Origin: a virus
Lineage: Duplodnaviria > Heunggongvirae > Uroviricota > Caudoviricetes
Strand: one strand, 5' to 3'
Virus record (IMG/VR): IMGVR_UViG_2737471838_000004
Coordinates: 1-55,334 of that record
DNA length: 55,334 nucleotides
Positions 28,210-47,305 of this stretch are shown one piece after another; positions within the stretch are counted from its first letter, which is position 1; each line of letters starts with the position of its first letter. The notes below the pieces were generated by a model. The model searched no databases. It saw nothing but the letters and a program-made list of their open reading frames with translations, and had not been told where the DNA came from. The position numbers were made by a program, and so were the translations under genes.

Positions 28210-28487
28210 CAGAATAATCTCCTATTCTGAAAAATATAACCCCCGCAAAACTCGACACCGCAGGGAGTGAAAACAGCTATAAAACACTGAAAACGGCGCT
28301 TCATCAGTACCGTTTCCAGAATTTTATAAAATTGGTGAATGGCGCTTTCTTCTACCCAGGTAGCGCCATACCTGTTAATGAGGTTGTTTACCCGGTATTA
28401 CGTGTTTTTGAATTTCCGCCGTCGCTCGCGGGAAGGATTGGCCCGGTTATGGCTGGCTGACAGAAACGGCGACACGTCAACGCGCTG

Positions 28488-28976
28488 TTATTCTTTGCGT
28501 AAGCACTGCGTTTTGATGTATCCCTGAAGCGCGGTTATCTTCGCATCCTTCTCTTTCAGTTGTTCTCTGAGGGATAGATAAGCCGATTCAGCGTCGGGAG
28601 TGAGTCTACAGGCGGCTCCATCAATGGCGCTGGCGGATCCGGTGGAGTCGGACACTCGCACAGGTGTTGCGTTGACGCGCAACCGGATAGAACCGTTATC
28701 AATGCCAGTGCGCAGATCGGCAATGTCAGATCTGATAGCTTTAATTTCATCGTGATACCTCTTATCAAGTTTTGACAGTTCGGCGTTTAGCTCCTTCATC
28801 TGCTGAATAGTGTTACTTGCTGTTTTCAGTGCGCCTTGCGTGGTCGTTAATTCTTCCTGTAACCTTGTCGCCTCACTCTGGTAATAGCATGTTACGGCGG
28901 TAAGGCTGGCAATGATGCAAACAACAGCGGCGATGATTAACGCCTTCACCTTGTCCACGTTTCCCCCCATTCGCAA
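28488..28976 (-). CDS. Rz: i-spanin (Rz-like)
   Basis: 162 aa; N-terminal TM helix, coiled-coil periplasmic domain; embedded +1-frame lipoprotein ORF. Confidence 0.8.
28556..28750 (-). CDS. Rz1: o-spanin (Rz1-like lipoprotein) embedded in Rz
   Basis: ORF 28556..28768 trimmed to MKLKLSDL; lipobox LSGC, Pro-rich ([14 protein letters not shown]); entirely within Rz in another frame. Confidence 0.7.
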   Translation of the reverse strand: MKLKLSDLTLPICALALITVLSGCASTQHLCECPTPPDPPAPLMEPPVDSLPTLNRLIYPSENN

Positions 28977-29437
28977 ACGGCATATTCAACCTCGCGGCGG
29001 TTTACCAGGCCTTGCCACTTCTTACCGCCAGCGTATACCCAGCGCTTAAGCTGTGCGCACGCCTCTGATTTCTTGCCGTCATTGAGCAGTTTTAATAAGG
29101 TTGATGTTTTGAAGTTGGTCGCGCCTACGTTATAGGCGAATGAATAAAGTGCAGCGCGGGTGAAATCTGATATTTCGACTTTGATATATGGGTCAATCGC
29201 TTTTGCGGTCTTGTGTAGATCTTTATTTAACAAAGCATCGCATTCTGATTGCGTGTAAGTCTTGCCAAGCATGATGTCTTTTCCGACGTGTCCATAACAT
29301 ATCGTGTAAACACCGATGACATCTCTGTATGGCTTATACTCAACGCCTTCAAGGTCTTTTATCATCACCCCCGCAATAGCGATCGCCCCACCAGCCGCCG
29401 CCGCAACAATCTTGTTTTTCAGCGATTGGCTAATCAT
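28946..29437 (-). CDS. SAR endolysin (T4-lysozyme-like glycoside hydrolase)
   Basis: ORF 28946..29518 trimmed to [25 protein letters not shown] (signal-anchor-release segment), then lysozyme-like region; follows holin by 1 nt. Confidence 0.8.
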
Positions 29438-29438
29438 G

Positions 29439-29639
29439 TTACTTATTCCCCATTCGTGCGTCGTGTTCCTCTTGCGCCCGCTTATTCTCCTGTGATTTGA
29501 AGTAATAATTAACGGCAAATGTGCCTATGGTTGATAAGATACCCACAAAGACGGCAATGTCATTGATGGTTATCGCGCCGAAAAAAGCAGTTACGGCCCC
29601 GGTCACATACGCACACGCCTCCCGTATTCTGTCGAACAT
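29439..29639 (-). CDS. holin
   Basis: 66 aa; two hydrophobic helices and charged C-terminus; GGAGG RBS; first gene of lysis cassette. Confidence 0.7.
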
Positions 29640-29655
29640 AGATTTACCTCCAACA

Positions 29656-29682
29656 AAGCAAAAACCCGGCGCGGGGCCGGGT
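29656..29682 (-). terminator. terminator hairpin immediately upstream of holin (tR'-like)
   Basis: CCCGGC CCCGC GCCGGG hairpin followed by TTTTTGCTTTG on the minus strand. Confidence 0.5.
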
Positions 29683-29710
29683 AGTTACAGTTTCGCATTG
29701 TTAGGTAATA

Positions 29711-29739
29711 TTTTAATCTGTTTGTTTTCGACCCACAAA
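29711..29739 (-). promoter_or_regulatory. candidate late promoter (PR'-like; TTGTGG-17-TAAAAT)
   Basis: good -35/-10 with 17-bp spacer about 25 nt upstream of the terminator and about 70 nt upstream of the holin start. Confidence 0.4.
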
Positions 29740-29806
29740 TACGGCTTTACTGCTTTCTGTATATCAGGCCATTATCAAGTAGCATTTGCATGTGCCAACG
29801 ATCCAT

Positions 29807-29923
29807 CATACTTGATTCCCAGCATAGTTTTTCTGGATCCTGAATCATCACCTTGTCACCCTTAACCAGATAAGCGATGTTAAATAACATGTGCAAATAG
29901 ATGCCGTCTTCGATCTCGTTCAT
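29807..29923 (-). CDS. hypothetical small protein (38 aa), tandem paralog of next ORF
   Basis: hand-translated MNEIEDGIYLHMLFNIAYLVKGDKVMIQDPEKLCWNQV; ATGA overlap with upstream ORF. Confidence 0.3.
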
Positions 29924-30102
29924 AGCTCGCCAACCTTAAATAGTATGCCTTTATCAACGCTTAGCTTAATATCTTCCCTTGTTGTTTTGAAGAATGGCTC
30001 TGCGTATTCCTCACCATCTACGCTGATTGTTACGGTATCGCCGTCAACCATGTAAAAAACGTTTTCCATCTGGTTTACACCATAGATTCCGTCTTCAATC
30101 AT
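29920..30102 (-). CDS. hypothetical small protein
   Basis: 60-aa ORF (MIEDGIYGVNQ...) in tightly packed minus-strand array. Confidence 0.4.
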   Translation of the reverse strand: MIEDGIYGVNQMENVFYMVDGDTVTISVDGEEYAEPFFKTTREDIKLSVDKGILFKVGEL

Positions 30103-30299
30103 TTCTTGCGCTCCTTAATGGCTCGTTTGATCTGCGCCACCGTTGCAGCGAAGAAAGCGATGAAAACCAATACAGGCCAGAAAGGTATCTCAAATCCGCA
30201 ACGGTCGGCCTCGCTAACCTTAATAAAACATGACATCAGGATCGCGCCAGCGATATAAAGCAAAACAATCACAGCAATAAGGCATTCAATCATCTTCAC
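30099..30299 (-). CDS. small membrane protein
   Basis: 66 aa, two hydrophobic helices, basic C-terminus. Confidence 0.45.
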   Translation of the reverse strand: MKMIECLIAVIVLLYIAGAILMSCFIKVSEADRCGFEIPFWPVLVFIAFFAATVAQIKRAIKERKK

Positions 30300-30418
30300 C
30301 CCCCAAGATCGTGATAAATATCGTTAGGGTCTTCTCCATGTTCCTCGCAAAAACGATCAAATAGCGCCCAATTTTCAGAAAGAAACATGATTAATAAATT
30401 TTTATACCACTCTTCCAT

Positions 30419-30673
30419 TTAATCATCCTCATCGTCTTCATGTTCAGCAAGGAACTCATCAACCACGCGATAAGTTACTGGCGGGATGTATTCGAAATCA
30501 TCAGAATCGAGATCAAGCGTCCGGCGGTCGCCGTCATCATCCAGCGTATTCATCCCTAATTCACCGAAAGGGCCGTACCCCATACGGCCCAAGTATTCGC
30601 AACCAATCGTAAACCCAGGATATTCGCCTTTACACCTGATTTTGTATAGCTTACTTGATGCGCTCAATATCAA
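30419..30673 (-). CDS. hypothetical acidic protein
   Basis: 84-aa ORF, acidic C-terminus EHEDDEDD. Confidence 0.4.
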   Translation of the reverse strand: MILSASSKLYKIRCKGEYPGFTIGCEYLGRMGYGPFGELGMNTLDDDGDRRTLDLDSDDFEYIPPVTYRVVDEFLAEHEDDEDD

Positions 30674-30974
30674 TTCCCCCTGTCACACCTTCAGTCATTT
30701 TGTATTCAGCCACCAGTTCAGATCCAATCAATTCCACATCAACATCAGGGCAAGGATTAAGCACCACAGATGCAAAAACAAAATGCTTAACGTGATTTGT
30801 ATCATCAAGGTGTTTCACGTCAAAAGGCGGTTCAGGTACGTGAAAGCATTTAACGTGCGCATCGTCTTCAGTAGCTACACGGAAACATGCGCCAGGTTGC
30901 CCGGCGTACTGTCCCAATCTTTCTTCGTTCGGTAAAGTACCACGAAAAACTTTAACACTGGCAAATTTAGACAT
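30651..30974 (-). CDS. hypothetical protein
   Basis: 107-aa ORF in array. Confidence 0.4.
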   Translation of the reverse strand: MSKFASVKVFRGTLPNEERLGQYAGQPGACFRVATEDDAHVKCFHVPEPPFDVKHLDDTNHVKHFVFASVVLNPCPDVDVELIGSELVAEYKMTEGVTGGIDIERIK

Positions 30975-30997
30975 TTGTTATTCTCCTTCGTAAGAAA

Positions 30998-31297
30998 TTA
31001 AAATTCAGCACCAGGTAAGCTACGCGCTTTATTCACCGCATCGTGTTTTAACGATAAACCAGCGCGATAATTCATAATACCCATATTGCCAACAGGTATT
31101 TCATTATTTTCTGCCTTTATTCTGAACAACTGGTTTTTAGTGAAGATCCTGTCACCATCAGTGATGTATAACCAGTCTCCACGCTTACCAACAACGACAT
31201 GAGATCGGCCTAAACTGTCTTTAAATTCATAATTGCAGAAAACATCATCGTTAGGCACTTCAACAAAACAGCACGCTATGAACTTATCGCTTTTCAT
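30998..31297 (-). CDS. hypothetical protein
   Basis: 99-aa ORF in array. Confidence 0.4.
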   Translation of the reverse strand: MKSDKFIACCFVEVPNDDVFCNYEFKDSLGRSHVVVGKRGDWLYITDGDRIFTKNQLFRIKAENNEIPVGNMGIMNYRAGLSLKHDAVNKARSLPGAEF

Positions 31298-31593
31298 GAT
31301 TCAACCCTTCTGGTTTGATGGGCCATCCGGCCAGTGTTTTATTTTTCTTCGTCTCATTTAAATCCTAAACACTCAGCGTATTCGTCAATGCTTAATGCTT
31401 CTTCACCTGGTGCCAGCAATTCAAAGTAGCGGGCGTATAGTTCAAAAACCCATGCTGGATATTTAGCGTTAGCGTTCATTTTCTTGTCTCCCCTTCCGTC
31501 TTCTTTGACTTATATATAACAAAACGGCACTGCCGAAACAATGCCATTCTGTATACTTTGCGAGGTAGATCACATTTATTGATGCGAACAACA

Positions 31594-31809
31594 TTACCAC
31601 TTAACAAAACGCGCGATCGGTTCCTCGCCGAACTGGCTGGCAACGTGTCCACGCGCGTAACAATCCCAATAGCGCCAAGCGTCGCCGTGATCGTCTTTAA
31701 TGTATTGCGTGTTAAGTTCATCACCAGTAAGGTGACCTACTGTATATATTCCGCCGACCTCAAAGCATGATGTTTTTGATTCAGTGCATCTGACATACAT
31801 GATATTCAT
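31594..31809 (-). CDS. hypothetical protein
   Basis: 71-aa ORF in array. Confidence 0.35.
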   Translation of the reverse strand: MNIMYVRCTESKTSCFEVGGIYTVGHLTGDELNTQYIKDDHGDAWRYWDCYARGHVASQFGEEPIARFVKW

Positions 31810-31822
31810 TCCCTATTTGGAT

Positions 31823-32029
31823 TTATAAATAGCGCAACTGGCACACCATTACCGCCAGCGCCATCAACGAATCCGCTACCATCAAGATCGCTATAAAAAA
31901 CCACGGATCGCCGTCTTCATCATAAATGTACTGAATATCGTTAGTTCTGCTTATTAGCGTTTCTATGTCGTAAATCTCATCAACTACAAAAAGATCAGGG
32001 AAACGAGACTTTATACATTTTACAAACAT
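31823..32029 (-). CDS. hypothetical protein
   Basis: 68-aa ORF in array. Confidence 0.35.
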   Translation of the reverse strand: MFVKCIKSRFPDLFVVDEIYDIETLISRTNDIQYIYDEDGDPWFFIAILMVADSLMALAVMVCQLRYL

Positions 32030-32280
32030 CAGAAAACCCCTTTATAATCGACCGTGTATTTTGCTATCAGCTTCCATTCACAATAGCTTTCCATGTCGCG
32101 CGGTTGCCATCCTTTCATGCCTGCCGCACTTCGCGCAGCGTGACGGCGACAATTGTCGTTAAGGTCTACAACACACCACGGCTGAAGCACAAACATGTAA
32201 TTGGCCTCGTTGACCAGGATCGCCATCTGCTTTCCTGTTGCCTTATCTTTCGCCCGGAAATAGCTTACCCTTATTTTCAT
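32029..32280 (-). CDS. hypothetical protein
   Basis: 83-aa ORF in array. Confidence 0.4.
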   Translation of the reverse strand: MKIRVSYFRAKDKATGKQMAILVNEANYMFVLQPWCVVDLNDNCRRHAARSAAGMKGWQPRDMESYCEWKLIAKYTVDYKGVF

Positions 32281-32491
32281 TTTGATATACCTCGATCAAC
32301 ATTTCTTCCTCAAGGTTGGCAGGACGTTTACGGAATACCCCGGCAAAAACCAGATCGTCGAGTAGGTCTTCACGCTTAAATAACCACTCTTTCATTATCA
32401 CCCCGTCGTCACTGCGATATACGACGCCGTTTTTCAGAAAATAAAAAGTGTTGATGTCTGTCTGGAGGTATAGATCTTCGTAAACGTCCAT
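32243..32491 (-). CDS. hypothetical protein
   Basis: ORF 32243..32617 trimmed to MDVYEDLY start. Confidence 0.35.
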   Translation of the reverse strand: MDVYEDLYLQTDINTFYFLKNGVVYRSDDGVIMKEWLFKREDLLDDLVFAGVFRKRPANLEEEMLIEVYQNENKGKLFPGER

Positions 32492-32495
32492 AATG

Positions 32496-32723
32496 TTAAC
32501 TCTCGACCACTTCCAGCCCGCGCCCCTTGTCGCCAACGAAGTCGCCCAAGCTGAACGTATACGACCACGCCGGATTAATGTAGTGATCATCAGCGCCAGC
32601 GGCAATGAGGTCAGCACCGTTAATCATGCAAGTGACATTATCACTATGAACGACGTCAACCACCTTACCAACAACCTGTTTCAATGACGGATAACCGTGA
32701 TCGTGCAAGAATTTTACTTTCAT
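32496..32723 (-). CDS. hypothetical protein
   Basis: 75-aa ORF in array. Confidence 0.4.
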   Translation of the reverse strand: MKVKFLHDHGYPSLKQVVGKVVDVVHSDNVTCMINGADLIAAGADDHYINPAWSYTFSLGDFVGDKGRGLEVVES

Positions 32724-32725
32724 CT

Positions 32726-33004
32726 TTACCCCTTATAAGTAACAGCATCAGAAAGCAACAATACCGCCAACATCTCACCGTCATGTAACGGATCTGGAAT
32801 ACCAAAAAATATATCGCTTTTACTGTCAGGTACTACTACGCGCATATTGCCTTGTTTATCTTCATGTACGAACCACGGCTTTTCGTGTGGCTCAAACATG
32901 CCGAAAAGCAATTTAAGATCTATTTCTTCTCCCTTCGTGAATAACGATACATCCGTTGTTGCGATAACTAACGCTTTCTGATCTGCTGCTTTCTTTGCTT
33001 TCAT
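32726..33004 (-). CDS. hypothetical protein
   Basis: 92-aa ORF in array. Confidence 0.4.
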   Translation of the reverse strand: MKAKKAADQKALVIATTDVSLFTKGEEIDLKLLFGMFEPHEKPWFVHEDKQGNMRVVVPDSKSDIFFGIPDPLHDGEMLAVLLLSDAVTYKG

Positions 33005-33234
33005 TCCTCTGCCTCCCAGCGGTCAATGCTGATTAGAAAATCGCGGATAGCGTGGCGCTCGTCGCGCGTTGGTTTCCGCTTCCGGTAAATTTTGAAATCG
33101 AACCATTCTTTTTCTTGTTCGAAGTCCAGATCGTAAGCAAGCGCCTCAATATATCCGCAGTCGTGATACTGGTACGCCACGCCAGCACGAACAAAAAAGC
33201 GGGTTTTATCCCGCTTGTGCTCATAGATACGCAT
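33001..33234 (-). CDS. hypothetical protein
   Basis: 77-aa ORF, overlapping stop/start with neighbours. Confidence 0.4.
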   Translation of the reverse strand: MRIYEHKRDKTRFFVRAGVAYQYHDCGYIEALAYDLDFEQEKEWFDFKIYRKRKPTRDERHAIRDFLISIDRWEAEE

Positions 33235-33244
33235 ATTTCCCCCG

Positions 33245-33475
33245 CTATGCAGTTGTGTAGCTGTCTACCAGCTTTTCATCCTTCATTCTGGCAAGCTGTG
33301 CGATGTTCATCGTGTAGCCGCCATCAGAGAAAAGCCACTCCGCAGCCTTGCGACGAAAAGCGATATCATCATGGTTACGCGTCCATGTAGCGATCACCAC
33401 GCGCTTTCCGTCAGTGGCGAACATAGATAATTCGTTATCAACTACGTCGATAGCCTGCCAGATTTTTAGCTCCAT
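33245..33475 (-). CDS. hypothetical protein
   Basis: 76-aa ORF in array. Confidence 0.4.
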   Translation of the reverse strand: MELKIWQAIDVVDNELSMFATDGKRVVIATWTRNHDDIAFRRKAAEWLFSDGGYTMNIAQLARMKDEKLVDSYTTA

Positions 33476-33831
33476 GATTTATCCCCGTAAATTTTGAATA
33501 ATTCCCGTGCTTCCTGATCTTCGAATAACTTCATATGCAGATCATGCAGTCGGCGCATTGTGCGGAAGCGTGGTCTAAACTCCTGGTTTCTTTTAATGAA
33601 CTTACCACCAATTGAATAAATATGACCGTATGAATACCATCTATTCCCTACCCAAATTAGATAAATTTCACCCTCATAATTAAATTTGATTGTAAGCTCG
33701 TCAACATCCATTATTAATCCTTTGTCGAGGATGTCGTTTAGCATATCATCCCATTCTTTGAGAAACTGCTGTTGATACATGCCAAAAATTGTATTTGCAG
33801 CATGGCAAAGATAATCAATGATTATTTGCAT
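33466..33831 (-). CDS. hypothetical protein
   Basis: 121-aa ORF in array. Confidence 0.4.
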   Translation of the reverse strand: MQIIIDYLCHAANTIFGMYQQQFLKEWDDMLNDILDKGLIMDVDELTIKFNYEGEIYLIWVGNRWYSYGHIYSIGGKFIKRNQEFRPRFRTMRRLHDLHMKLFEDQEARELFKIYGDKSWS

Positions 33832-33835
33832 ATTA

Positions 33836-34048
33836 TCACCACATCATATAGTAAACGTTATCATCAGCTAATAAGTCGGCGTCATCCTGCGTCATGTGTC
33901 TGGCCTCAAGGAAAAAATCCTCATCATGCCACTCACTAACAAGCATTCGCGCCCATTTACGGCGCTGGCGTTTATTGTGTCGCAGATCATCAAAAGCCTT
34001 TAATGCTTTGTCGTATGCCCTTACAAGGCGCTTGCGGTTACTTTTCAT
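33836..34048 (-). CDS. hypothetical protein
   Basis: 70-aa ORF in array. Confidence 0.4.
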   Translation of the reverse strand: MKSNRKRLVRAYDKALKAFDDLRHNKRQRRKWARMLVSEWHDEDFFLEARHMTQDDADLLADDNVYYMMW

Positions 34049-34319
34049 CGCTATGATCCTGTAAACAGTCGTTATAGCCTTCGATGTATCCGGTTAATCC
34101 GGTATTACTTACTGACCAATCAGCAGAACGGCGTTTGATGGCCTTATCCATAGTCATTTCGTCGCCTGGTCCGCCCGACTCAATGTATTTTCTTAAATCC
34201 CTTGCTATCCACGCCCTCAATTGTTGTGTATCACGGCACAACCTCGCTGATAATGTCAGGTCATTAACCAGCTTTGCAAATAGATGTTCTTTTAATTTAG
34301 GCTTCATCATCGTCACCAC
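34038..34319 (-). CDS. hypothetical protein
   Basis: 93-aa ORF in array. Confidence 0.4.
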   Translation of the reverse strand: MVTMMKPKLKEHLFAKLVNDLTLSARLCRDTQQLRAWIARDLRKYIESGGPGDEMTMDKAIKRRSADWSVSNTGLTGYIEGYNDCLQDHSDEK

Positions 34320-34500
34320 GCTTGTAAATTTTGACAGGCTTAATAGGGATGGCAGGCAATTCGCCTTCGTTTAACGCGCTTGCCATGCCCAATATTAAAC
34401 GCGCTTCCGCACCAGTTACTTTCTTACACCATGCACCGCCTGTTTTATCTTCGAACAAGATAACGGCAAATTGATCGTTTATTTCCAGCTTATCCATCAC
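34297..34500 (-). CDS. hypothetical protein
   Basis: 67-aa ORF, ATGA overlap with the Q-like gene stop. Confidence 0.4.
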   Translation of the reverse strand: MMDKLEINDQFAVILFEDKTGGAWCKKVTGAEARLILGMASALNEGELPAIPIKPVKIYKRGDDDEA

Positions 34501-35219
34501 TCACCCCGCGTCACTCGTTTAATTTCGTTATCCGCCCGCGCCTCTTCTTTGAACAATTCAGCAATGGCGTCTTCATAGAAAGCGCGGTATTTCTTCCACC
34601 ACGTTGATCGGCTTACCGGGAAAACAAGCTGATTAACCTCCTGCCGGACAAGATCTACAGGGAAACGCGAGTACCCGCGCCCGCCGCAGTGCTGGCACGT
34701 TTTGAAAACTGGCATTTCCGCCGCTTCACTGGCTGCTTTATCCGGTACTTCGCCACGTCCCTTGCATTGTTTACAATGATTGCGAACTGTCCCATGCCCC
34801 TTGCATTTTTTGCAAAGGTGTTTTTCCCCGTATTCGTCAAACGTAAATTTATATCCGCCGCACTCCATACAAGTTTTTTCCGTCGCGGCACTCTGGCAAT
34901 AATCACGAAACGCGAAAACGGCAACAAGAATAATGAGATCATTGCGTTGTGCCTCGTCCAGTTCCATAACGTATTTATAGTCTTTTGCCATAGCTCTTAA
35001 ACGCTCTGTAAGCAAAACTACGGCCTTATGTTTTTCGGCTTGTGATAGTTCCATCTTCCCTAAAAAAGCGCTATAACCAAGCTCTACGCGCGATTGCGCC
35101 ATACCCGCAGCGGTTAGCGCATCCGTTGTATTAAGCACATCCGGGGACGTGCCCCGGCTTTCGTCTGATAATCGCGGTGATTTGGGAAAGTGGAATTTTA
35201 GAATTGATTCTAAATTCAT
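34497..35219 (-). CDS. Q: putative late-gene antiterminator Q (zinc-finger type)
   Basis: 240 aa; Cys cluster CMECGG...CKKCKGHG...CKQCKGRG...CQHCGGRG; located downstream of rusA/ninG as in lambdoid phages. Confidence 0.5.
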   Translation of the reverse strand: MNLESILKFHFPKSPRLSDESRGTSPDVLNTTDALTAAGMAQSRVELGYSAFLGKMELSQAEKHKAVVLLTERLRAMAKDYKYVMELDEAQRNDLIILVAVFAFRDYCQSAATEKTCMECGGYKFTFDEYGEKHLCKKCKGHGTVRNHCKQCKGRGEVPDKAASEAAEMPVFKTCQHCGGRGYSRFPVDLVRQEVNQLVFPVSRSTWWKKYRAFYEDAIAELFKEEARADNEIKRVTRGE

Positions 35220-35401
35220 TATTTGCCCCCGTAACGCGCTGCCAGTCGTTTACGATCAGAAATAGCTTGGACTAACTTTCTCTCAAGCTCTTTCAGTGCT
35301 AGCAATTCGCGCATGTGAAAAGCCTGGATTTGTCGTACCGTTTCTAAATCATGCTCATCACGCTGAATATCAATTTGCAGATCTTTAATTTCGTTTTTCA
35401 T
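35219..35401 (-). CDS. hypothetical small coiled-coil protein
   Basis: ORF 35219..35434 trimmed to MKNEIKDLQ. Confidence 0.3.
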   Translation of the reverse strand: MKNEIKDLQIDIQRDEHDLETVRQIQAFHMRELLALKELERKLVQAISDRKRLAARYGGK

Positions 35402-35804
35402 TGTCACCCCACATATTAGTCGCGTATTCGTCAATATCCGGTAGTAGGTCGCCGCGTTCGCGGATCTTAATAAACAATCGCCCGCCTTTTACCTTCCGGC
35501 AGCGAACAATTTTTATAGAATCGATTTGTCCGTCATCAGTCCAGAATCCGGCGTATGTAAGGCTATCAAAAAGGCATTTAGGGATATTATCCAGATCTCT
35601 GGTTCGGTTATCCGGCGGCGCGGCATGAATGGTAATTGCCAGTCGGCAAGATAGGTTAATATTTAAATTTAATAGCTCGATGATGTTTCTTACCTGTTCC
35701 CGGTATTCTTTCCCCACTTTACTGATATAATGAAAACCTCGTGAATGCCGGTAATACCTATTATTCGATGGCGGGTAAGGCAGGCTAAAAGAATATTCAT
35801 TCAT
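35385..35804 (-). CDS. rusA: Holliday junction resolvase RusA
   Basis: 139 aa; motifs PPSNNRYY, RDLDN, GFW.DD typical of RusA. Confidence 0.85.
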   Translation of the reverse strand: MNEYSFSLPYPPSNNRYYRHSRGFHYISKVGKEYREQVRNIIELLNLNINLSCRLAITIHAAPPDNRTRDLDNIPKCLFDSLTYAGFWTDDGQIDSIKIVRCRKVKGGRLFIKIRERGDLLPDIDEYATNMWGDNEKRN

Positions 35805-36289
35805 GGAGGATTTCTCATTTCATATTTGTGAAAACCGTATTTTATTTCAGCGTCACGTCTAGCGCGTATTGCGTCTTCTATATCTTTAAACCTCCCTAAA
35901 TAGATTGTTTTGCCGTTTACATGTATAAAAGCGTCATAAGCGTTTTTATGGAAGTAGACCCCGGTTATTCCTAGTTTATTATTTTTCTGCACGTTCCTAT
36001 TTTGTTGGTTTTGCTGTGGAGTAACAAGAAACAGGTTTTCTATATTATTATTTAGTCGGTTTCTATCAAAATGATCTATTTGATACCCTTCCGGGATCGG
36101 GCCGTTGTGCATCTCCCAAATAATATGATGTGCCAAATACATGTTTTGTTTGTATTTTATTAATCTGTAAGACGTTGTGCTACTCACACAACCAGCAAGA
36201 TCACCGACACAAATTTTTCCGTGTTTTGGTTTTATTTTCCAGTAAAGATCGCCATTTCTATATTCAAATATATCACCCCAATTATGCAC
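35801..36289 (-). CDS. HNH homing-endonuclease-like protein (HNH + AP2-like)
   Basis: 162 aa; IWEMHNGPIPEGYQIDHFDRNRLNN...NLFLVT; paralog of 49570..50073 and 52979..53437. Confidence 0.75.
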   Translation of the reverse strand: MHNWGDIFEYRNGDLYWKIKPKHGKICVGDLAGCVSSTTSYRLIKYKQNMYLAHHIIWEMHNGPIPEGYQIDHFDRNRLNNNIENLFLVTPQQNQQNRNVQKNNKLGITGVYFHKNAYDAFIHVNGKTIYLGRFKDIEDAIRARRDAEIKYGFHKYEMRNPP

Positions 36290-36890
36290 ACTTACCTCTC
36301 CTTAAATCATCTAATTTTTTTTGATAGTATTGAATAAGCTCTTTACACTCCTGAATGGTCCATTTATGAGTCTCGTTATTATTTTCTAATGCCTCCACCC
36401 GTTTTAAGCCAATGCGCTTAATCAAATTAATTCTGTATAGTTTGATATTCCCGTCTAATACCTGATTGCAGTGCTTACATTGACGATGAATATTGTCCTC
36501 ATTAAAACGAAGATGCCCGGCGGCGGCTACACTTCTCATATGCCCCGCGTCCCAACCGCATTGATCGCCGTAGTAAGTGCCACACGAAATACAGGGTAAA
36601 TTTGCGTCGCGCTCTCTTATATACGCATTACATACCGCCTGGCACTGTTTCAACCAATAACTACGCGGATTTAACTGTTTCCGCTTACGGTTGCGTTCTT
36701 CCCGCTGGCTATCACGGCGTTTCTTCCGTTCCATCGCCTTCATAGCCTTCTCACGGTCGCGGCATAACTGGTCAAACTTCAGTTCTTCCAGACATTCATC
36801 GCTGCACCACGTTTGATTGTGATATTTAGGCTCAAAAAAAACGCCGCAGCATTTGCAACGGCGTCGTATGGGTTTTTTAGGGTTTTGCAT
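36282..36890 (-). CDS. ninG: NinG (Rap) recombination-associated protein
   Basis: ORF 36282..37019 trimmed to MQNPKKPIRRRCKCCG with GGGGTGG RBS; Cys-rich N-terminus and LPCISCG...DAGH...RFNE..NIH.QC..CN motifs of the NinG family. Confidence 0.75.
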   Translation of the reverse strand: MQNPKKPIRRRCKCCGVFFEPKYHNQTWCSDECLEELKFDQLCRDREKAMKAMERKKRRDSQREERNRKRKQLNPRSYWLKQCQAVCNAYIRERDANLPCISCGTYYGDQCGWDAGHMRSVAAAGHLRFNEDNIHRQCKHCNQVLDGNIKLYRINLIKRIGLKRVEALENNNETHKWTIQECKELIQYYQKKLDDLRRGKCA

Positions 36891-36904
36891 AAAAACCACC
36901 CCGA

Positions 36905-37081
36905 TTATTTTTGATTCTCTGTTTCGTTCAGCCTTTCGGCGTGTCCGGCCCTTAGCCAATGATCTAAACATTCGTTGCACTCGTTGCAGTCTCCTTTCTT
37001 CGTGCTGCATACATTGCACATTGCACGCATGACGCTTTCTCGTTCATAGTCGTCATGCCATTGGTAATTATCAAAAGGCAT
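36905..37081 (-). CDS. small Cys-rich (zinc-ribbon-like) protein
   Basis: hand-translated 58 aa MPFDNYQWHDDYERESVMRAMCNVCSTKKGDCNECNECLDHW...; AAGGAGA RBS. Confidence 0.4.
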   Translation of the reverse strand: MPFDNYQWHDDYERESVMRAMCNVCSTKKGDCNECNECLDHWLRAGHAERLNETENQK

Positions 37082-37240
37082 AATGCTCTCTCCTTTTCAG
37101 GTGATTTCTACGCATTTCAGCGCTGCCGGATTTTTAAAGAGCATTTCGTTTGCTTGAAGTATACAAAATGGATACACCATAACAAGACAAAAAGCGCCAT
37201 TATGTGATCCGCATCACGCAATGACGCCATTTTGTAAATT

Positions 37241-38023
37241 TCAGTCCGGTAAAACGCGGTTAAGCGTAGTACGATTGATGGCACGGTCGTTAGCAAGGAA
37301 TACAGCACGGGCAAAGCCACGCGGCGTTAGTGAGCGGATCATCTTTGTTCGTTTCGTCCTGCCTCCGGTTTTCGCCCACCCAGGGTTATCACCAGAGTTA
37401 AGATCTACAGGTCTAAAAAGCGGCTGTTTAAATCCGTTACCGCACCATATGCAAGTTTTCTTTGTATATGCGTCGCGCGGCGGGTAAACATCCGGGAAAG
37501 CAGGATGTTTGTCATCTTCCGGCAGGTAGCCACCGTAAGCGCAAGGATTGAAGATAAAATCAGGCTTACGCCATAACGTTGACAGTGCGCCCACCGGATT
37601 TTCCACCATCCACGGCACGTTGTACATATTTGCCAGTTTTTCCACCAGTTTTGCGCTATTCGCCGCCTTCACCTGGAAGCCTGGATCTTTTTTTCGCTTG
37701 TCAGCGAACCAGCGAGCGCCAGACACGGCGAGATCGTCGCATGGCGGAAAACCCATGATAATATCAGGCTCCGGGTAAACTGATAATTCAGGCGAGAACA
37801 TCACCAGGAAATGGCTATCAATCCATACGTTAACGTATTCAATATTTGGATGAATTATTTTAACGCCTTCATAATCGCCGTGATTTGCGCCGTCATAGTT
37901 GAAGCAATAGCACTTATATCCCGCTTCAGCCCAATCTTTAACTGCGTACCCGCTGCCGTCGTACAGCGACCACACAACCCAACTTCTTAGCCAGTTATTT
38001 AACCAGTGTTTAGCCTTTCTCAT
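37241..38023 (-). CDS. divergent DNA cytosine-C5 methyltransferase-like protein
   Basis: 260 aa; motif I-like LYDGSGYA, motif IV-like GFPPCDDLAVSG (PCD rather than PCQ), motif VI-like MVENPVG. Confidence 0.5.
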   Translation of the reverse strand: MRKAKHWLNNWLRSWVVWSLYDGSGYAVKDWAEAGYKCYCFNYDGANHGDYEGVKIIHPNIEYVNVWIDSHFLVMFSPELSVYPEPDIIMGFPPCDDLAVSGARWFADKRKKDPGFQVKAANSAKLVEKLANMYNVPWMVENPVGALSTLWRKPDFIFNPCAYGGYLPEDDKHPAFPDVYPPRDAYTKKTCIWCGNGFKQPLFRPVDLNSGDNPGWAKTGGRTKRTKMIRSLTPRGFARAVFLANDRAINRTTLNRVLPD

Positions 38024-38565
38024 TTTATGCCCTCAAACGTGAAATAGCGGCGCATGATGATAGTGATCACCGTTACCGCTGCCATTTTTGAGATGAATTG
38101 CATTGCTGATATTTCAGGCATAAACGCCATGAATGATAGCGTAGGAAAAATCAACGCATCGCCAATGGCTGACGCTATATTTGCAGGCCAGCGCTTAGAA
38201 TCGAAATCACCAGGCAAAACCCGGTAAACGCCGCCAGAAATAAGCGCACCGGAAACAACCGCAACGAATGACGCTATCGCCACCATTCCGGCGTCGTAAT
38301 TTATCAGCACAGTAATTGCGCCAGCGGCGGCGCATGTAGTAGCTGACCATTTCAGGCCGCCGTCATATAACAGAAAGTCACGGATCATCATATTGACATA
38401 CACAGCGGCTACCGTGGTGATCGGAATTACCCACGGGCCACAGTGGTTAACAATAAGGTTGATGATCACGAAAACGGCGACATAAACGCAGGCTAATAAC
38501 CTGTTAATTGTCACCCTTTCCATTTTTATGATACCCCGCCGCGCGTAATAGCGATTCGTTGTCAA
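38020..38565 (-). CDS. multi-pass integral membrane protein
   Basis: 181-aa ORF with 4-5 predicted hydrophobic helices; start may be the internal MERVTINR. Confidence 0.5.
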   Translation of the reverse strand: MTTNRYYARRGIIKMERVTINRLLACVYVAVFVIINLIVNHCGPWVIPITTVAAVYVNMMIRDFLLYDGGLKWSATTCAAAGAITVLINYDAGMVAIASFVAVVSGALISGGVYRVLPGDFDSKRWPANIASAIGDALIFPTLSFMAFMPEISAMQFISKMAAVTVITIIMRRYFTFEGIK

Positions 38566-44262: not shown

Positions 44263-44553
44263 TTAATGGTAGCGGACTTTATCCAGGGGTTTTTCCCCTA
44301 GTTGGCGTGGTTGCGTTGCGTGGTAGTAGTTGCCGCTTTCATTCTCCGTATACCATTTTACTGATCCTTTGCGACGTTCTTTAATGCTATTTGATTTGCA
44401 TCTTTCCTCGTTTGCAAAGCGAATAGCTTTATCCACATTGTCTGTTTTATTAATTGCAGGTGATGATTTTCTTTCGTTTTCTCTTTTTATTCTTCTGCGT
44501 TCCCTGGCATTCATTTTGCTATCACATTTGCCATACATAATTGTAACGGTCAT
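44263..44553 (-). CDS. N: N-like transcription antiterminator (arginine-rich motif)
   Basis: 96 aa; N-terminus MTVTIMYGK...NARERRRIKRENERK resembles the P22 N-type arginine-rich boxB-binding motif; AAGGAGA RBS; first gene downstream of pL-like promoter and nutL-like site. Confidence 0.55.
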   Translation of the reverse strand: MTVTIMYGKCDSKMNARERRRIKRENERKSSPAINKTDNVDKAIRFANEERCKSNSIKERRKGSVKWYTENESGNYYHATQPRQLGEKPLDKVRYH

Positions 44554-44608: not shown

Positions 44609-44646
44609 GCCGCACTTCCAGCGGCTGACCAGATTGTTAAAGAGCG
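44609..44646 (-). promoter_or_regulatory. nutL-like site: boxA (CGCTCTTTAACAA) + 8-nt spacer + boxB-like hairpin (GCCGC TGGAAGT GCGGC)
   Basis: read on minus strand in the leader between pL-like promoter and N; boxA matches the CGCTCTTTAACAA consensus. Confidence 0.45.
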
Positions 44647-44903: not shown

Positions 44904-44932
44904 AATATACGCCCTGTGATATGTCGAGTCAA
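44904..44932 (-). promoter_or_regulatory. pL-like early-left promoter (TTGACT-17-TATATT)
   Basis: near-consensus sigma70 promoter downstream of the cI terminator, reading toward N; preceded by TATACAAAATGG. Confidence 0.5.
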
Positions 44933-46276: not shown

Positions 46277-47305
46277 ATGAGTATGCGGCTAATGGTCGAG
46301 GTATTCCATACTGAGGTCGGGAACCCAATGCACAAACTAGTGCTGTTGAAGTTAGCTGATAACGCTAATGATAACGGCGAGTGTTACCCTTCTTACCATC
46401 ACATAGCAAAGGAATGCGAGATCAGTAAGAGTACAGCAATGAGGGCTGTCGACGCACTTTGTGAAAAAGGTCTATTGATTAAACAACCAAGATACTTAAT
46501 CGGAGGAAAGGAGCAAACGAGTAACTTCTATGTGATAGTTCTGCCATCATTGCAGGGTAGTGTCACAGTGACACCGGGGGTAGTGTCAGAGAGACACCAG
46601 GGTAGTGTCACAGTGACACCGGGGGTAGTGTCAGAGAGACACCAGGGTAGTGTCACAGTGACACCGGGGGTAGTGTCAGAGAGACACCCTAATCAGTCAT
46701 ATATAACCAGTAAAGAGAACATTAAGAACAATACACTTCGTGTATTGGAAAAAGACGAGTCTATCAGCGAAGAAGATCGGGTGGCTGATTTGGCAGCGTC
46801 GCGCGTACTCGATCACTATAACAACAAGTTTAATAGCAAGCATAAGGAGAAAAAATACTTTGTTAACCTACTGAAGAAGACAAAAACACGAGGCGCATAT
46901 ACTGAAGAAGATTTGATCATGGTTATCGACTGGATAGCGGAAACATGGTCGTTTAAACCGGAACCGATAAAGATCGCCAGGGTAAGCCGCTTTGATGAAT
47001 ACCGGGCAAAGGCTGAACAATGGCGAAGAGTTACAGCTACTGTAAACGCTGCCGATGTGGTGGAAGAGTTTAACATCACGTTTGATGGACTGTTGCCACC
47101 TGCCGAACTTGATCGTGATCTTGAACGCAAGATCTATGCGTTCACTGACTACCTGAAAGACAAAAGCATTAACGGCTTTATCGCCTACTTTGAAGCGTTC
47201 AAAAACACGGCTTCAGATTTTTACTTCGGCAATGGCTTCACTGCGACACTTGATTTCCTGCTTAAACCAAAAACGCTACGTGATACACGCGCTGGCGCTC
47301 TTTGA
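46277..47305 (+). CDS. replication initiation protein (lambda O-like) containing internal iteron array
   Basis: 342 aa; N-terminal HTH domain, linker encoded by 3 x 45-bp direct repeats (QGSVTVTPGVVSERH x3), C-terminal domain. Confidence 0.7.
   Translation: MSMRLMVEVFHTEVGNPMHKLVLLKLADNANDNGECYPSYHHIAKECEISKSTAMRAVDALCEKGLLIKQPRYLIGGKEQTSNFYVIVLPSLQGSVTVTPGVVSERHQGSVTVTPGVVSERHQGSVTVTPGVVSERHPNQSYITSKENIKNNTLRVLEKDESISEEDRVADLAASRVLDHYNNKFNSKHKEKKYFVNLLKKTKTRGAYTEEDLIMVIDWIAETWSFKPEPIKIARVSRFDEYRAKAEQWRRVTATVNAADVVEEFNITFDGLLPPAELDRDLERKIYAFTDYLKDKSINGFIAYFEAFKNTASDFYFGNGFTATLDFLLKPKTLRDTRAGAL
46553..46687 (+). repeat. origin iterons: 3 tandem 45-bp repeats, each two about 22-bp sub-iterons with internal dyad GTGTCAC..GTGACAC / GTGTC..GACAC
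   Basis: perfect tandem copies of CAGGGTAGTGTCACAGTGACACCGGGGGTAGTGTCAGAGAGACAC inside the O-like gene, followed by an AT-rich stretch. Confidence 0.8.

Follow-up and report, generated by a model that had tools for sequence, protein, structure and literature searches.

A candidate PR′-like cassette at the holin gene, displaced from the Q gene by an array of small open reading frames, in an mEp021-like coliphage genome

Q-dependent late control is usually described with the Q gene adjoining its own promoter. Here, we analyzed a 55,334-nucleotide (nt) stretch of phage DNA (IMG/VR record IMGVR_UViG_2737471838_000004, positions 1 to 55,334; referred to as the window), in which a lambda-family Q gene is followed by an array of 20 small open reading frames (ORFs) and only then by the holin gene. 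A nearly invariant noncoding block of about 95 nt with a PR′-like layout was found directly 5′ of the holin gene, and it is the sole noncoding block that is universally conserved between Q and the lysis genes. We consider it probable that the Q gene has become uncoupled from the Q site, with the array forming the distal part of an antitermination-dependent early operon and Q acting at the holin-proximal cassette. In the window, 4.8 kilobases (kb) separate the Q gene from this probable site of action. Comparison across loci indicates that the displaced anatomy is real and is the rule throughout the family; the group itself has already been described. Thus, a prevalent human-gut coliphage family keeps a lambda-type Q, yet 8 to 29 small genes and up to two terminators separate the gene from its probable site. 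An earlier note on this DNA had also placed late control at the holin rather than at Q, and the absence of space after Q and the position of the only universally conserved noncoding block agree with it. Its interpretation is partly supported, being largely right and incomplete.

The comparison set consisted of 52 related loci (2 phage records, 5 Escherichia coli prophages, and 45 IMG/VR contigs), 51 of which reach far enough past Q for the holin-proximal block to be judged; with the window counted, 53 sequences were available. Every gene of the Q-to-holin region is on the minus strand. The block and the gene behind it contain the following elements:

29733..29738, minus strand: weak -35-like hexamer TTGTGG; by family column counts only T1 and G3 are invariant
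29716..29727, minus strand: conserved spacer segment AAACAAACAGAT, located where the Q-binding element of lambda lies; pairwise diversity 0.063
29710..29715, minus strand: -10 hexamer TAAAAT, invariant in 51/51 loci
29697..29702, minus strand: -10-like AACAAT, predicted sigma-dependent pause element, 7 nt past the -10; invariant
29660..29682, minus strand: terminator hairpin ACCCGGC-CCCGC-GCCGGGU plus U-tract, from terminator scan and folding
29439..29651, minus strand: holin gene with its ribosome-binding site (RBS; GGAGG at 29651..29647, ATG at 29639); Pfam PF16080, E=1.8e-14

The core of the block, TAAAATATTACCTAACAATGCGAAA, occurs in exactly one copy per locus (51/51), 1.9 to 7.1 kb after Q and adjoining the holin gene, and a scan of IMG/VR returned 46 contigs only, all of the mEp021-like group or fragments thereof. 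When aligned, the block reads AAACAAAYRGAT - TAAAAT - AYTWCCT - AACAAT - GCGAAAYTGTAAYTA - CCCGGC - variable loop - GCCGGG - UUUUU - holin RBS. Its pairwise diversity over the 51 loci is 0.059, falling to zero in TAAAAT, AACAAT, and the stem, versus a synonymous divergence of 0.27 to 0.56 in Q, holin, and array genes. The borders vary, with at least four unrelated last ORFs upstream and two holin alleles downstream. The presence of the block in 51 loci and its near-invariance against the synonymous divergence of its neighbors therefore place the promoter-like element beyond chance. As a bare consensus match, the element is no better than chance and would be unconvincing on the window sequence alone: a generic promoter and terminator scan gave counts not above those of shuffled controls, and since the -35 hexamer matches the consensus at 3/6 positions, a scan of this kind does not list the element. 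The earlier note had put the promoter at 29711..29739; the element exists, its coordinates were one base off (TTGTGG at 29738..29733, a 17-nt spacer, TAAAAT at 29715..29710), and the -35 that was named is not conserved, as 15/51 loci read TCGCGC there. A better-scoring candidate, TTGGCA-16-GATAAT (29798..29771), was rejected, as it lies inside the coding sequence of ORF20 and does not occur in loci with another last ORF.

The hairpin at 29682..29660, which the earlier note had recognized before the holin gene, ranks first among the terminator-like sites of the 8.8 kb that were scanned and folds at -25.4 kcal/mol (z = -3.5); its stem is invariant and its loop variable across loci. In the mEp021 record, TERM_5 is annotated at the position of this hairpin. 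The transcription start is predicted at the A at 29702, which would put the hairpin at +21..+39 and the end of the U-tract at +43 and yield a terminated RNA of about 45 nt. The holin (coding sequence 29439..29639, 107 nt of gap 5′ of its ATG at 29639) is the first gene past the cassette, and Pfam also confirmed the endolysin and Rz genes.

The layout of the block was compared with known PR′ promoters:

lambda PR′: -35 TTGACT, 17-nt spacer, -10 TAAATT, 6-nt gap (tgactc), AACGAT
SfV PR′: -35 TTGCAT, 17-nt spacer, -10 TAAGAT, 6-nt gap (ttttcc), AACGAT
SF6 (P22-like) PR′: -35 TTTACA, 17-nt spacer, -10 TAATCT, 7-nt gap (ctattct), AACGAT
window cassette: -35 TTGTGG, 17-nt spacer, -10 TAAAAT, 7-nt gap (attacct), AACAAT

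In lambda, a -10-like element causes a sigma-dependent pause at which Q loads, and the Q-binding element is located in the spacer that separates the -35 from the -10 (PMC9388147). By analogy, the 12-bp spacer segment AAACAAAYRGAT is a putative Q-binding element. The window cassette shares with those of lambda, SfV, and SF6 a Q of the PF03589 family and the arrangement of a -10, 6 to 7 nt, and AACRAT. As in lambda, the late genes are preceded by an intrinsic terminator and begin with the lysis cassette; the terminator of SfV, within about 65 nt of its promoter, is likewise promoter-close. Unlike in lambda, the cassette is not adjacent to Q but 4.8 kb off (1.9 to 7.1 kb in the group), without intergenic DNA after Q. 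Only about 20 nt separate its terminator from the expected pause site, and the predicted RNA of about 45 nt compares to the 194-nt 6S RNA of lambda; the -35 is weak, and the Q protein has a second zinc module (four CxxCxGxG). A terminated RNA this short, predicted from a promoter with a weak -35, would constitute a convenient natural variant for studies of Q loading.

The phage is a new member of the published mEpimmI (mEp021-like) coliphage group, as judged by its synteny and high nucleotide identity with mEp021-type genomes, the arginine motif of its N-like protein Gp17, and the nut sites found. These phages were described in 2025 as non-lambdoid, Nus-dependent coliphages (Negrete-Mendez et al., PMC11893012). 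The lambdoid framing of the earlier note departs from this classification of the phage. mEp554 is the closest match, with 83% of the region aligning at 91% identity; seven phage records match at 87 to 91% identity (mEp554, mEp044, mEp010, mEp013, mEp021, mEp515, and MagusPhagus), and further matches were obtained to 35 E. coli prophages and 45 IMG/VR contigs. Gp17, translated from 44263..44553, contains NARERRRIKR with R17, R19, R20, and R24 present, the arginine-rich motif as published (PMC11893012). Three nut sites with boxA and boxB were located at 44645, 37146, and 45871. A scan of GTDB species genomes with Q gave no match, and an Rfam search over 28400..38200 gave none at E values up to 1. 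The window shares with the other mEpimmI phages the same architecture and the early antitermination by Gp17 and nut, and the hairpins annotated as TERM_5 (mEp021) and T9/T10 (mEp554) were already in GenBank; unlike them, it has its own combination of array genes. The sections of PMC11893012 considered here contain no discussion of the late promoter position, of the array as a unit, or of a gene-embedded terminator.

The block could, instead, lack a promoter and consist of a terminator or attenuator (t5) plus a leader controlling holin translation, with the late genes reached by read-through from PR (by Gp17-modified polymerase or with Q loaded elsewhere). The weak or absent -35 fits this explanation, as does the drawing of t5 with the Gp17 antitermination system (PMC11893012). 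The predicted leader (29640..29705, minus strand) moreover folds as an extended helix in which CUAACAAUGCGAAA pairs with UUUUUGCUUUGUUGG across the terminator, ending beside the holin Shine-Dalgarno (SD) sequence. Both arms are invariant, and the helix could couple read-through to holin translation. However, an invariant TAAAAT and AACAAT at 7-nt spacing would be useless in a pure terminator or leader, and this spacing reproduces that of three known PR′ promoters of lambda-family Q proteins. Furthermore, a lambda-family Q loads only onto a paused complex that contains sigma and is close to the promoter (PMC9388147), and no other candidate site is conserved across the group. We therefore regard this explanation as unlikely. 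A nut-site reading of the block was rejected because the boxA sequence GCTCTTTA, which stands at all three nut sites, is missing from it.

Next to the array, on the upstream side, lies the Q gene:

34497..35219, minus strand: Q antiterminator gene, 240 amino acids (aa); Pfam PF03589, E=1e-28; PDB 7ubm (lambda Q), E=2.8e-38

These matches bear out the earlier assignment of a Q-like gene. In BLASTP, the protein is 34% identical to lambda Q (E=2e-47) with a 31-aa insert, and its N-terminal 114 residues, the best-conserved part, align without gaps; by homology, the product is a true lambda-family Q. Its four CxxCxGxG motifs (residues ~115 to 183), compared to two in lambda Q, make up a DnaJ-type two-zinc module. 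The insert falls in the "arm" that in lambda Q contacts DNA and sigma region 4. The long lambda-family Q proteins of SfV and SF6 are among the closest relatives of the window Q outside the group, and long-armed Q proteins also occur in HK225 and mEp460. In 53/53 sequences, the stop codon of Q and the start codon (ATG) of the following ORF overlap (TAATG or TGATG), the window having TGATG; thus, there is no intergenic room for a PR′-tR′ unit after Q.

A promoter within coding sequence at this junction was nevertheless weighed. If the true late promoter were located at the Q stop (~34520..34474), the array would consist of late, Q-dependent genes, and Q would override the hairpins tA and tB inside the array (described below) as well as t5. 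A look-alike consisting of GTGAC(G/A), 16 to 17 nt, TAAGCT, 7 nt, and AACGAT spans the 3′ end of Q and the 5′ end of ORF1 (34474..34520, minus strand; GTGACG and 17 nt in the window). It contains TAnnnT, 6 to 7 nt, and AACRAT at 34492..34474, with the exact AACGAT of lambda, and codons 5 to 9 of ORF1, which hold it, are without synonymous variation. Three serial terminators would suit a Q-modified polymerase, and the mEp021 annotation counts the ORF9 ortholog among virion structural proteins. On the other hand, the pattern has 3 hits in the window versus 2.6 expected by chance, and neither mEp021, which is a viable phage, nor the loci where the first ORF differs or is missing (L025, L027, L028, L031, L035, L036, L049, L032-34, and L006) contain it. 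The -10 varies at synonymous sites (TAAGCT, TAAGTT, CAAGTT, TAAACT, and TAAGAT), the 3′ end of Q shows no extra constraint, and the universally conserved PR′-like block at the holin would be left unexplained. A late promoter at the Q stop is therefore very unlikely. We judge the look-alike to be due to chance or coding, although it could have remained from an ancestral PR′ that adjoined Q.

Shiga toxin (Stx) phages also have several kilobases of accessory genes between Q and holin S. In these phages, PR′ and tR′ remain next to Q, and the cargo is late and Q dependent (PMC6266700), while in the window the cargo lies upstream of the PR′-like cassette and no conserved promoter follows Q. A gap of several kilobases between Q and holin, which the earlier note had presented as a departure, is already known from Stx phages.

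The following features lie upstream of Q and inside the array:

37228..37180, minus strand: t4 hairpin, directly 5′ of nutR2, from folding
37146..37106, minus strand: nutR2, with boxA TGCTCTTTAAAAA and boxB, from a repeat pair and folding; described in PMC11893012
33188..33216, minus strand: tA, hairpin AAGCGGG-AUAAAA-CCCGCUU followed by UUUUUUGUU, from scan and folding; ORF6 codons 7 to 17
31509..31577, minus strand: tB, composite block in the 114-nt gap, from folding; kept in 40/52 loci

We infer a transcription map that runs from PR (44932..44904) through nutR1, gp17, further genes, a methyltransferase gene, t4, nutR2 (37146), ninF, ninG, HNH, and rusA to Q and continues through ORF1 to ORF5, tA, ORF6 to ORF12, tB, ORF13 to ORF20, the PR′-like cassette with t5, and holin, endolysin, and Rz to the structural genes. 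Early transcription would start at the PR-like promoter (44932..44904) and be modified by Gp17, acting as an N-like antiterminator at nutR1 and nutR2. It would traverse the nin-type genes and Q and proceed unbroken into the 20 small genes, which are translationally coupled to Q, passing two conserved intrinsic terminators, tA in ORF6 and tB in the only large gap. Transcription past tA and tB would make the array a delayed-early block that depends on antitermination. Before the holin, a PR′-like cassette is formed by the weak -35, the putative Q-binding spacer, TAAAAT, 7 nt, AACAAT (+1..+6), and the GC-rich hairpin with its U-tract (+21..+43); this step is described at the sequence level, and the steps before and after it are deduced. 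Without Q, RNA polymerase starting at the cassette would stop after an RNA of about 45 nt. Q supplied in trans by the upstream operon would load at the paused polymerase, which, once carrying Q, would read past the hairpin and transcribe the lysis and structural genes.

The array is assigned to the early operon because it is codirectional with Q, translationally coupled to it, and located downstream of the Gp17 nutR2 site. The earlier note had assigned it to an early-left operon; "early" agrees with these features, and "left" applies to window coordinates only, the lambda counterpart being the rightward operon from PR. ORF4 homologs in a P2-like early operon represent an early-type context. 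Nor does the array consist of plain read-through DNA, as it contains two conserved terminator-like hairpins, which the note had missed, and a composite regulatory block. The conservation of the hairpins fits an operon that needs processive antitermination, like the lambda nin region. The nin region consists of small overlapping ORFs with terminators tR2 to tR4 between P and Q. As in nin, dense, small, overlapping accessory ORFs lie in an N-dependent rightward operon and are punctuated by intrinsic terminators; NinF, NinG, and RusA genes are present upstream of Q in the window phage. Unlike nin, the array follows Q, so its terminators do not gate Q synthesis, and its gene families are unrelated to nin genes.

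tA folds at -20.4 kcal/mol (z = -4.2) and was found in 52/52 loci, with about 41 nt essentially invariant. The synonymous heterozygosity of ORF6 is about 0.02 over codons 6 to 18, compared to about 0.2 in the rest of the gene, and this near-zero variation indicates a nucleic acid signal overlaid on the coding sequence, of which tA is a clear example. The tB block contains the hairpin GGCAUUG-UUUCGG-CAGUGCC (31545..31526) with a U-tract to 31518. The corresponding predictions for mEp554 in its record are T9 (tA) and T10 (tB). The tB block also holds a CRP-consensus-like TGTGA-N6-TCGCA at 31574..31559 (a TGTGA-N6-TCRCA palindrome across relatives) and, 5′ of the hairpin, the 13-nt motif GTATACAGAATGG at 31556..31544. 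On the other strand, this motif reads CCATTYTGTAWAC and has 10 occurrences versus 0.34 expected, among them copies at 31544, 37159, 37227, 44934, 45778, and 50079; perfect copies abut PR, overlap a PL-like -10, and flank t4 (beside nutR2).

The array might not be one unit: an internal PR-like promoter in tB would express ORF13 to ORF20 apart from Q and ORF1 to ORF12, possibly under immunity or CRP-like host control. The block parallels PR in layout (GTATACAGAATGG-CA-TTGTTT-17-TATATA-TAAGTCAAAGAAG versus GTATACAAAATGG-A-TTGACT-17-TATATT-GCGAATCAAAGGAAG), the 13-nt motif recurs far beyond its expected number at PR, PL, t4, and tB, and a TGTGA-N6-TCACA palindrome lies upstream in relatives. The putative -10, however, is without the conserved final T and varies (TATATA, TATAAA, and ACATAT), the coding strand of this sequence forms a canonical terminator fold, and the block is missing in 12/52 loci. 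A split of the array at tB is unlikely; an internal tB promoter would nevertheless be compatible with a Q site displaced to the holin.

The reading in which Q acts at the holin-proximal cassette has several points against it. The promoter is weak by consensus, its -35 matching at 3/6 positions and at only 2/6 in 15/51 loci. The Q-binding element is assigned by position only, and the spacer AAACAAAYRGAT has no clear resemblance to the lambda spacer. Covariation of the two -35-region variants with the 240-aa and 242-aa Q classes was looked for and not found. The terminator stem is without compensatory changes, its support being invariance and folding energy, not covariation. t5 is listed among experimentally demonstrated terminators (Fig. 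7 legend, PMC11893012) and is probably TERM_5, given the order of TERM_1 to TERM_5 along the mEp021 record. Gp17-modified polymerase may itself read through t5, in which case late genes need not strictly depend on Q. The mEp021 record lists gp41, the ORF9 ortholog, among virion structural proteins, which could mean late expression. This annotation derives from a mass spectrometry study of CsCl-purified virions that also detected the early protein Ssb (PMC11893012), which leaves it ambiguous. Finally, the early rather than late timing of the array is deduced from sequence alone.

Beyond the displaced Q site, the array, with its about 30 families, might be an accessory operon expressed in stages rather than passive cargo. 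Three sub-blocks would be released in sequence by processive antitermination past tA and the PR-like tB node, which shares the 13-nt motif with PR, PL, and t4. Such an operon would place host-takeover or antidefense functions in the interval after Q is made and before lysis under Q control, and part of it would respond to those immunity or host regulators whose site of action is PR. We put this forward tentatively and consider it rather unlikely.

The array was delimited by minus-strand ORF calling and inspection of starts and SD sequences. Ratios of nonsynonymous to synonymous polymorphism (pN/pS) are given with each ORF:

34297..34497, minus strand: ORF1, 66 aa, ATG overlapping the Q stop; phrog_35000; pN/pS 0.24
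34038..34310, minus strand: ORF2, 90 aa; phrog_29262; pN/pS 0.26
33836..34048, minus strand: ORF3, 70 aa; phrog_8758; pN/pS 0.22
33466..33831, minus strand: ORF4, 121 aa; phrog_16975; pN/pS 0.14
33245..33475, minus strand: ORF5, 76 aa; phrog_38280; pN/pS 0.16
33001..33234, minus strand: ORF6, 77 aa, contains hairpin tA, clusters with ORF7; phrog_30442; pN/pS 0.07
32726..33004, minus strand: ORF7, 92 aa; phrog_33175; pN/pS 0.11
32496..32723, minus strand: ORF8, 75 aa; phrog_5009; pN/pS 0.14
32243..32491, minus strand: ORF9, 82 aa, ortholog of mEp021 gp41; pN/pS 0.21
32029..32280, minus strand: ORF10, 83 aa; phrog_38609; pN/pS 0.16
31823..32029, minus strand: ORF11, 68 aa, hydrophobic C terminus; phrog_31142, residues 1 to 45 only
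31594..31809, minus strand: ORF12, 71 aa; phrog_31142; pN/pS 0.15
31354..31479, minus strand: ORF13, 41 aa; phrog_22232; pN/pS 0.07
30998..31297, minus strand: ORF14, 99 aa; no PHROG match; pN/pS 0.29 over 31 loci
30651..30974, minus strand: ORF15, 107 aa; phrog_23107; pN/pS 0.44
30419..30667, minus strand: ORF16, 82 aa, TTG start, very acidic, isoelectric point (pI) 4.1; phrog_25234; pN/pS 0.17
30296..30418, minus strand: ORF17, 40 aa, acidic; phrog_15754; pN/pS 0.36
30099..30293, minus strand: ORF18, 64 aa, small membrane protein, maximum 19-aa hydropathy 2.76; phrog_10061; pN/pS 0.34
29920..30102, minus strand: ORF19, 60 aa, tandem paralog of ORF20; phrog_15318; pN/pS 0.43
29747..29923, minus strand: ORF20, 58 aa, last array gene; phrog_15318; pN/pS 0.34

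These 20 ORFs of 40 to 121 aa fill 29747..34497 between Q and holin. Tight packing had been noted before, with about 19 ORFs of 38 to 121 aa, and the array is confirmed. Ten junctions overlap, and only three internal gaps exceed 20 nt (114, 56, and 23 nt). The values of pN/pS lie between 0.07 and 0.44 in 19/20 ORFs, which corresponds to purifying selection. A competing ORF at 31476..31724 was judged spurious, its pN/pS being 0.80. On comparative grounds, the array ORFs are real protein-coding accessory genes. Pfam and NCBIfam searches matched 0/20 of them, while 18/20 matched PHROG families, all of unknown function, so that the earlier statement of no recognizable homology applies to the former databases and not to PHROG. 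The earlier note had seen in the array a likely reservoir of host-takeover or antidefense functions, which is a hypothesis; no homology to known families of either kind was detected among the array ORFs. The small membrane and acidic proteins mentioned by the earlier note were recovered in ORF18, with its strongly hydrophobic segments, and in ORF16, ORF17, and ORF19, with pI values near 4.1.

Homologs outside the group were found for some of the ORFs. Those of ORF3 (53% identity) occur in Sasha-like Salmonella siphoviruses and those of ORF8 (about 40% identity) in rV5-like virulent myoviruses. ORF4 homologs, 40% identical, are found in P2-like Salmonella prophages, within the early operon between cox and gene A. 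The ORF4 family has the motifs DYLCH..NT and W..NRWY and an invariant RPRFRTMRRL, and its AlphaFold2 model, although confident (predicted local distance difference test [pLDDT] score of 81), gave no fold match. ORF4 homologs in P2-like Salmonella prophages adjoin DNA methyltransferases. The ORF9 model was uninformative (pLDDT 52). For ORF11, no full-length ortholog was found among the compared loci, and its sequence looks like that of an ORF12 paralog that is truncated or chimeric.

In the 51 loci, the arrays comprise 8 to 29 ORFs in 1.9 to 7.0 kb (median, 21 ORFs in 5.4 kb); the 20 ORFs of the window compare to 8 in mEp021 and up to 29 elsewhere. The ORFs of the group fall into about 32 families whose order is fixed, the arrays differing by presence or absence and by tandem paralogs. 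The window contains three tandem pairs, ORF6/7 (32726..33234), ORF11/12 (phrog_31142), and ORF19/20 (phrog_15318; 29747..30102), and relatives carry up to 3 to 5 copies. A single superfamily of array proteins was considered and dropped, as all-against-all hhalign linked only fam17~25~28 and, weakly, fam2. The sole array family with a recognizable domain, a 274-aa PAPS-reductase-like protein (L037, 13520..14344), occurs in 3 loci and is absent from the window. These roughly 32 ordered small-protein families under purifying selection provide a concrete list for toxicity, host-takeover, and antidefense screens, and some of them are common to virulent rV5-like phages and P2-like early operons.

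Two further observations concern the DNA upstream of the array. An HNH endonuclease gene (PF13392; 35801..36289, minus strand) separates ninG from rusA; mEp021 and mEp554 do not have it at this place, the E21845/O/A prophage (L006) does, and it is probably a mobile insertion. In addition, three perfect tandem 45-nt copies (CAGGGTAGTGTCACAGTGACACCGGGGGTAGTGTCAGAGAGACACC) are located at 46553..46688 (plus strand) within a 342-aa ORF (46277..47305), and each unit contains GTGTCAC/GTGACAC inverted repeats, which suggests iterons or an origin-like array.

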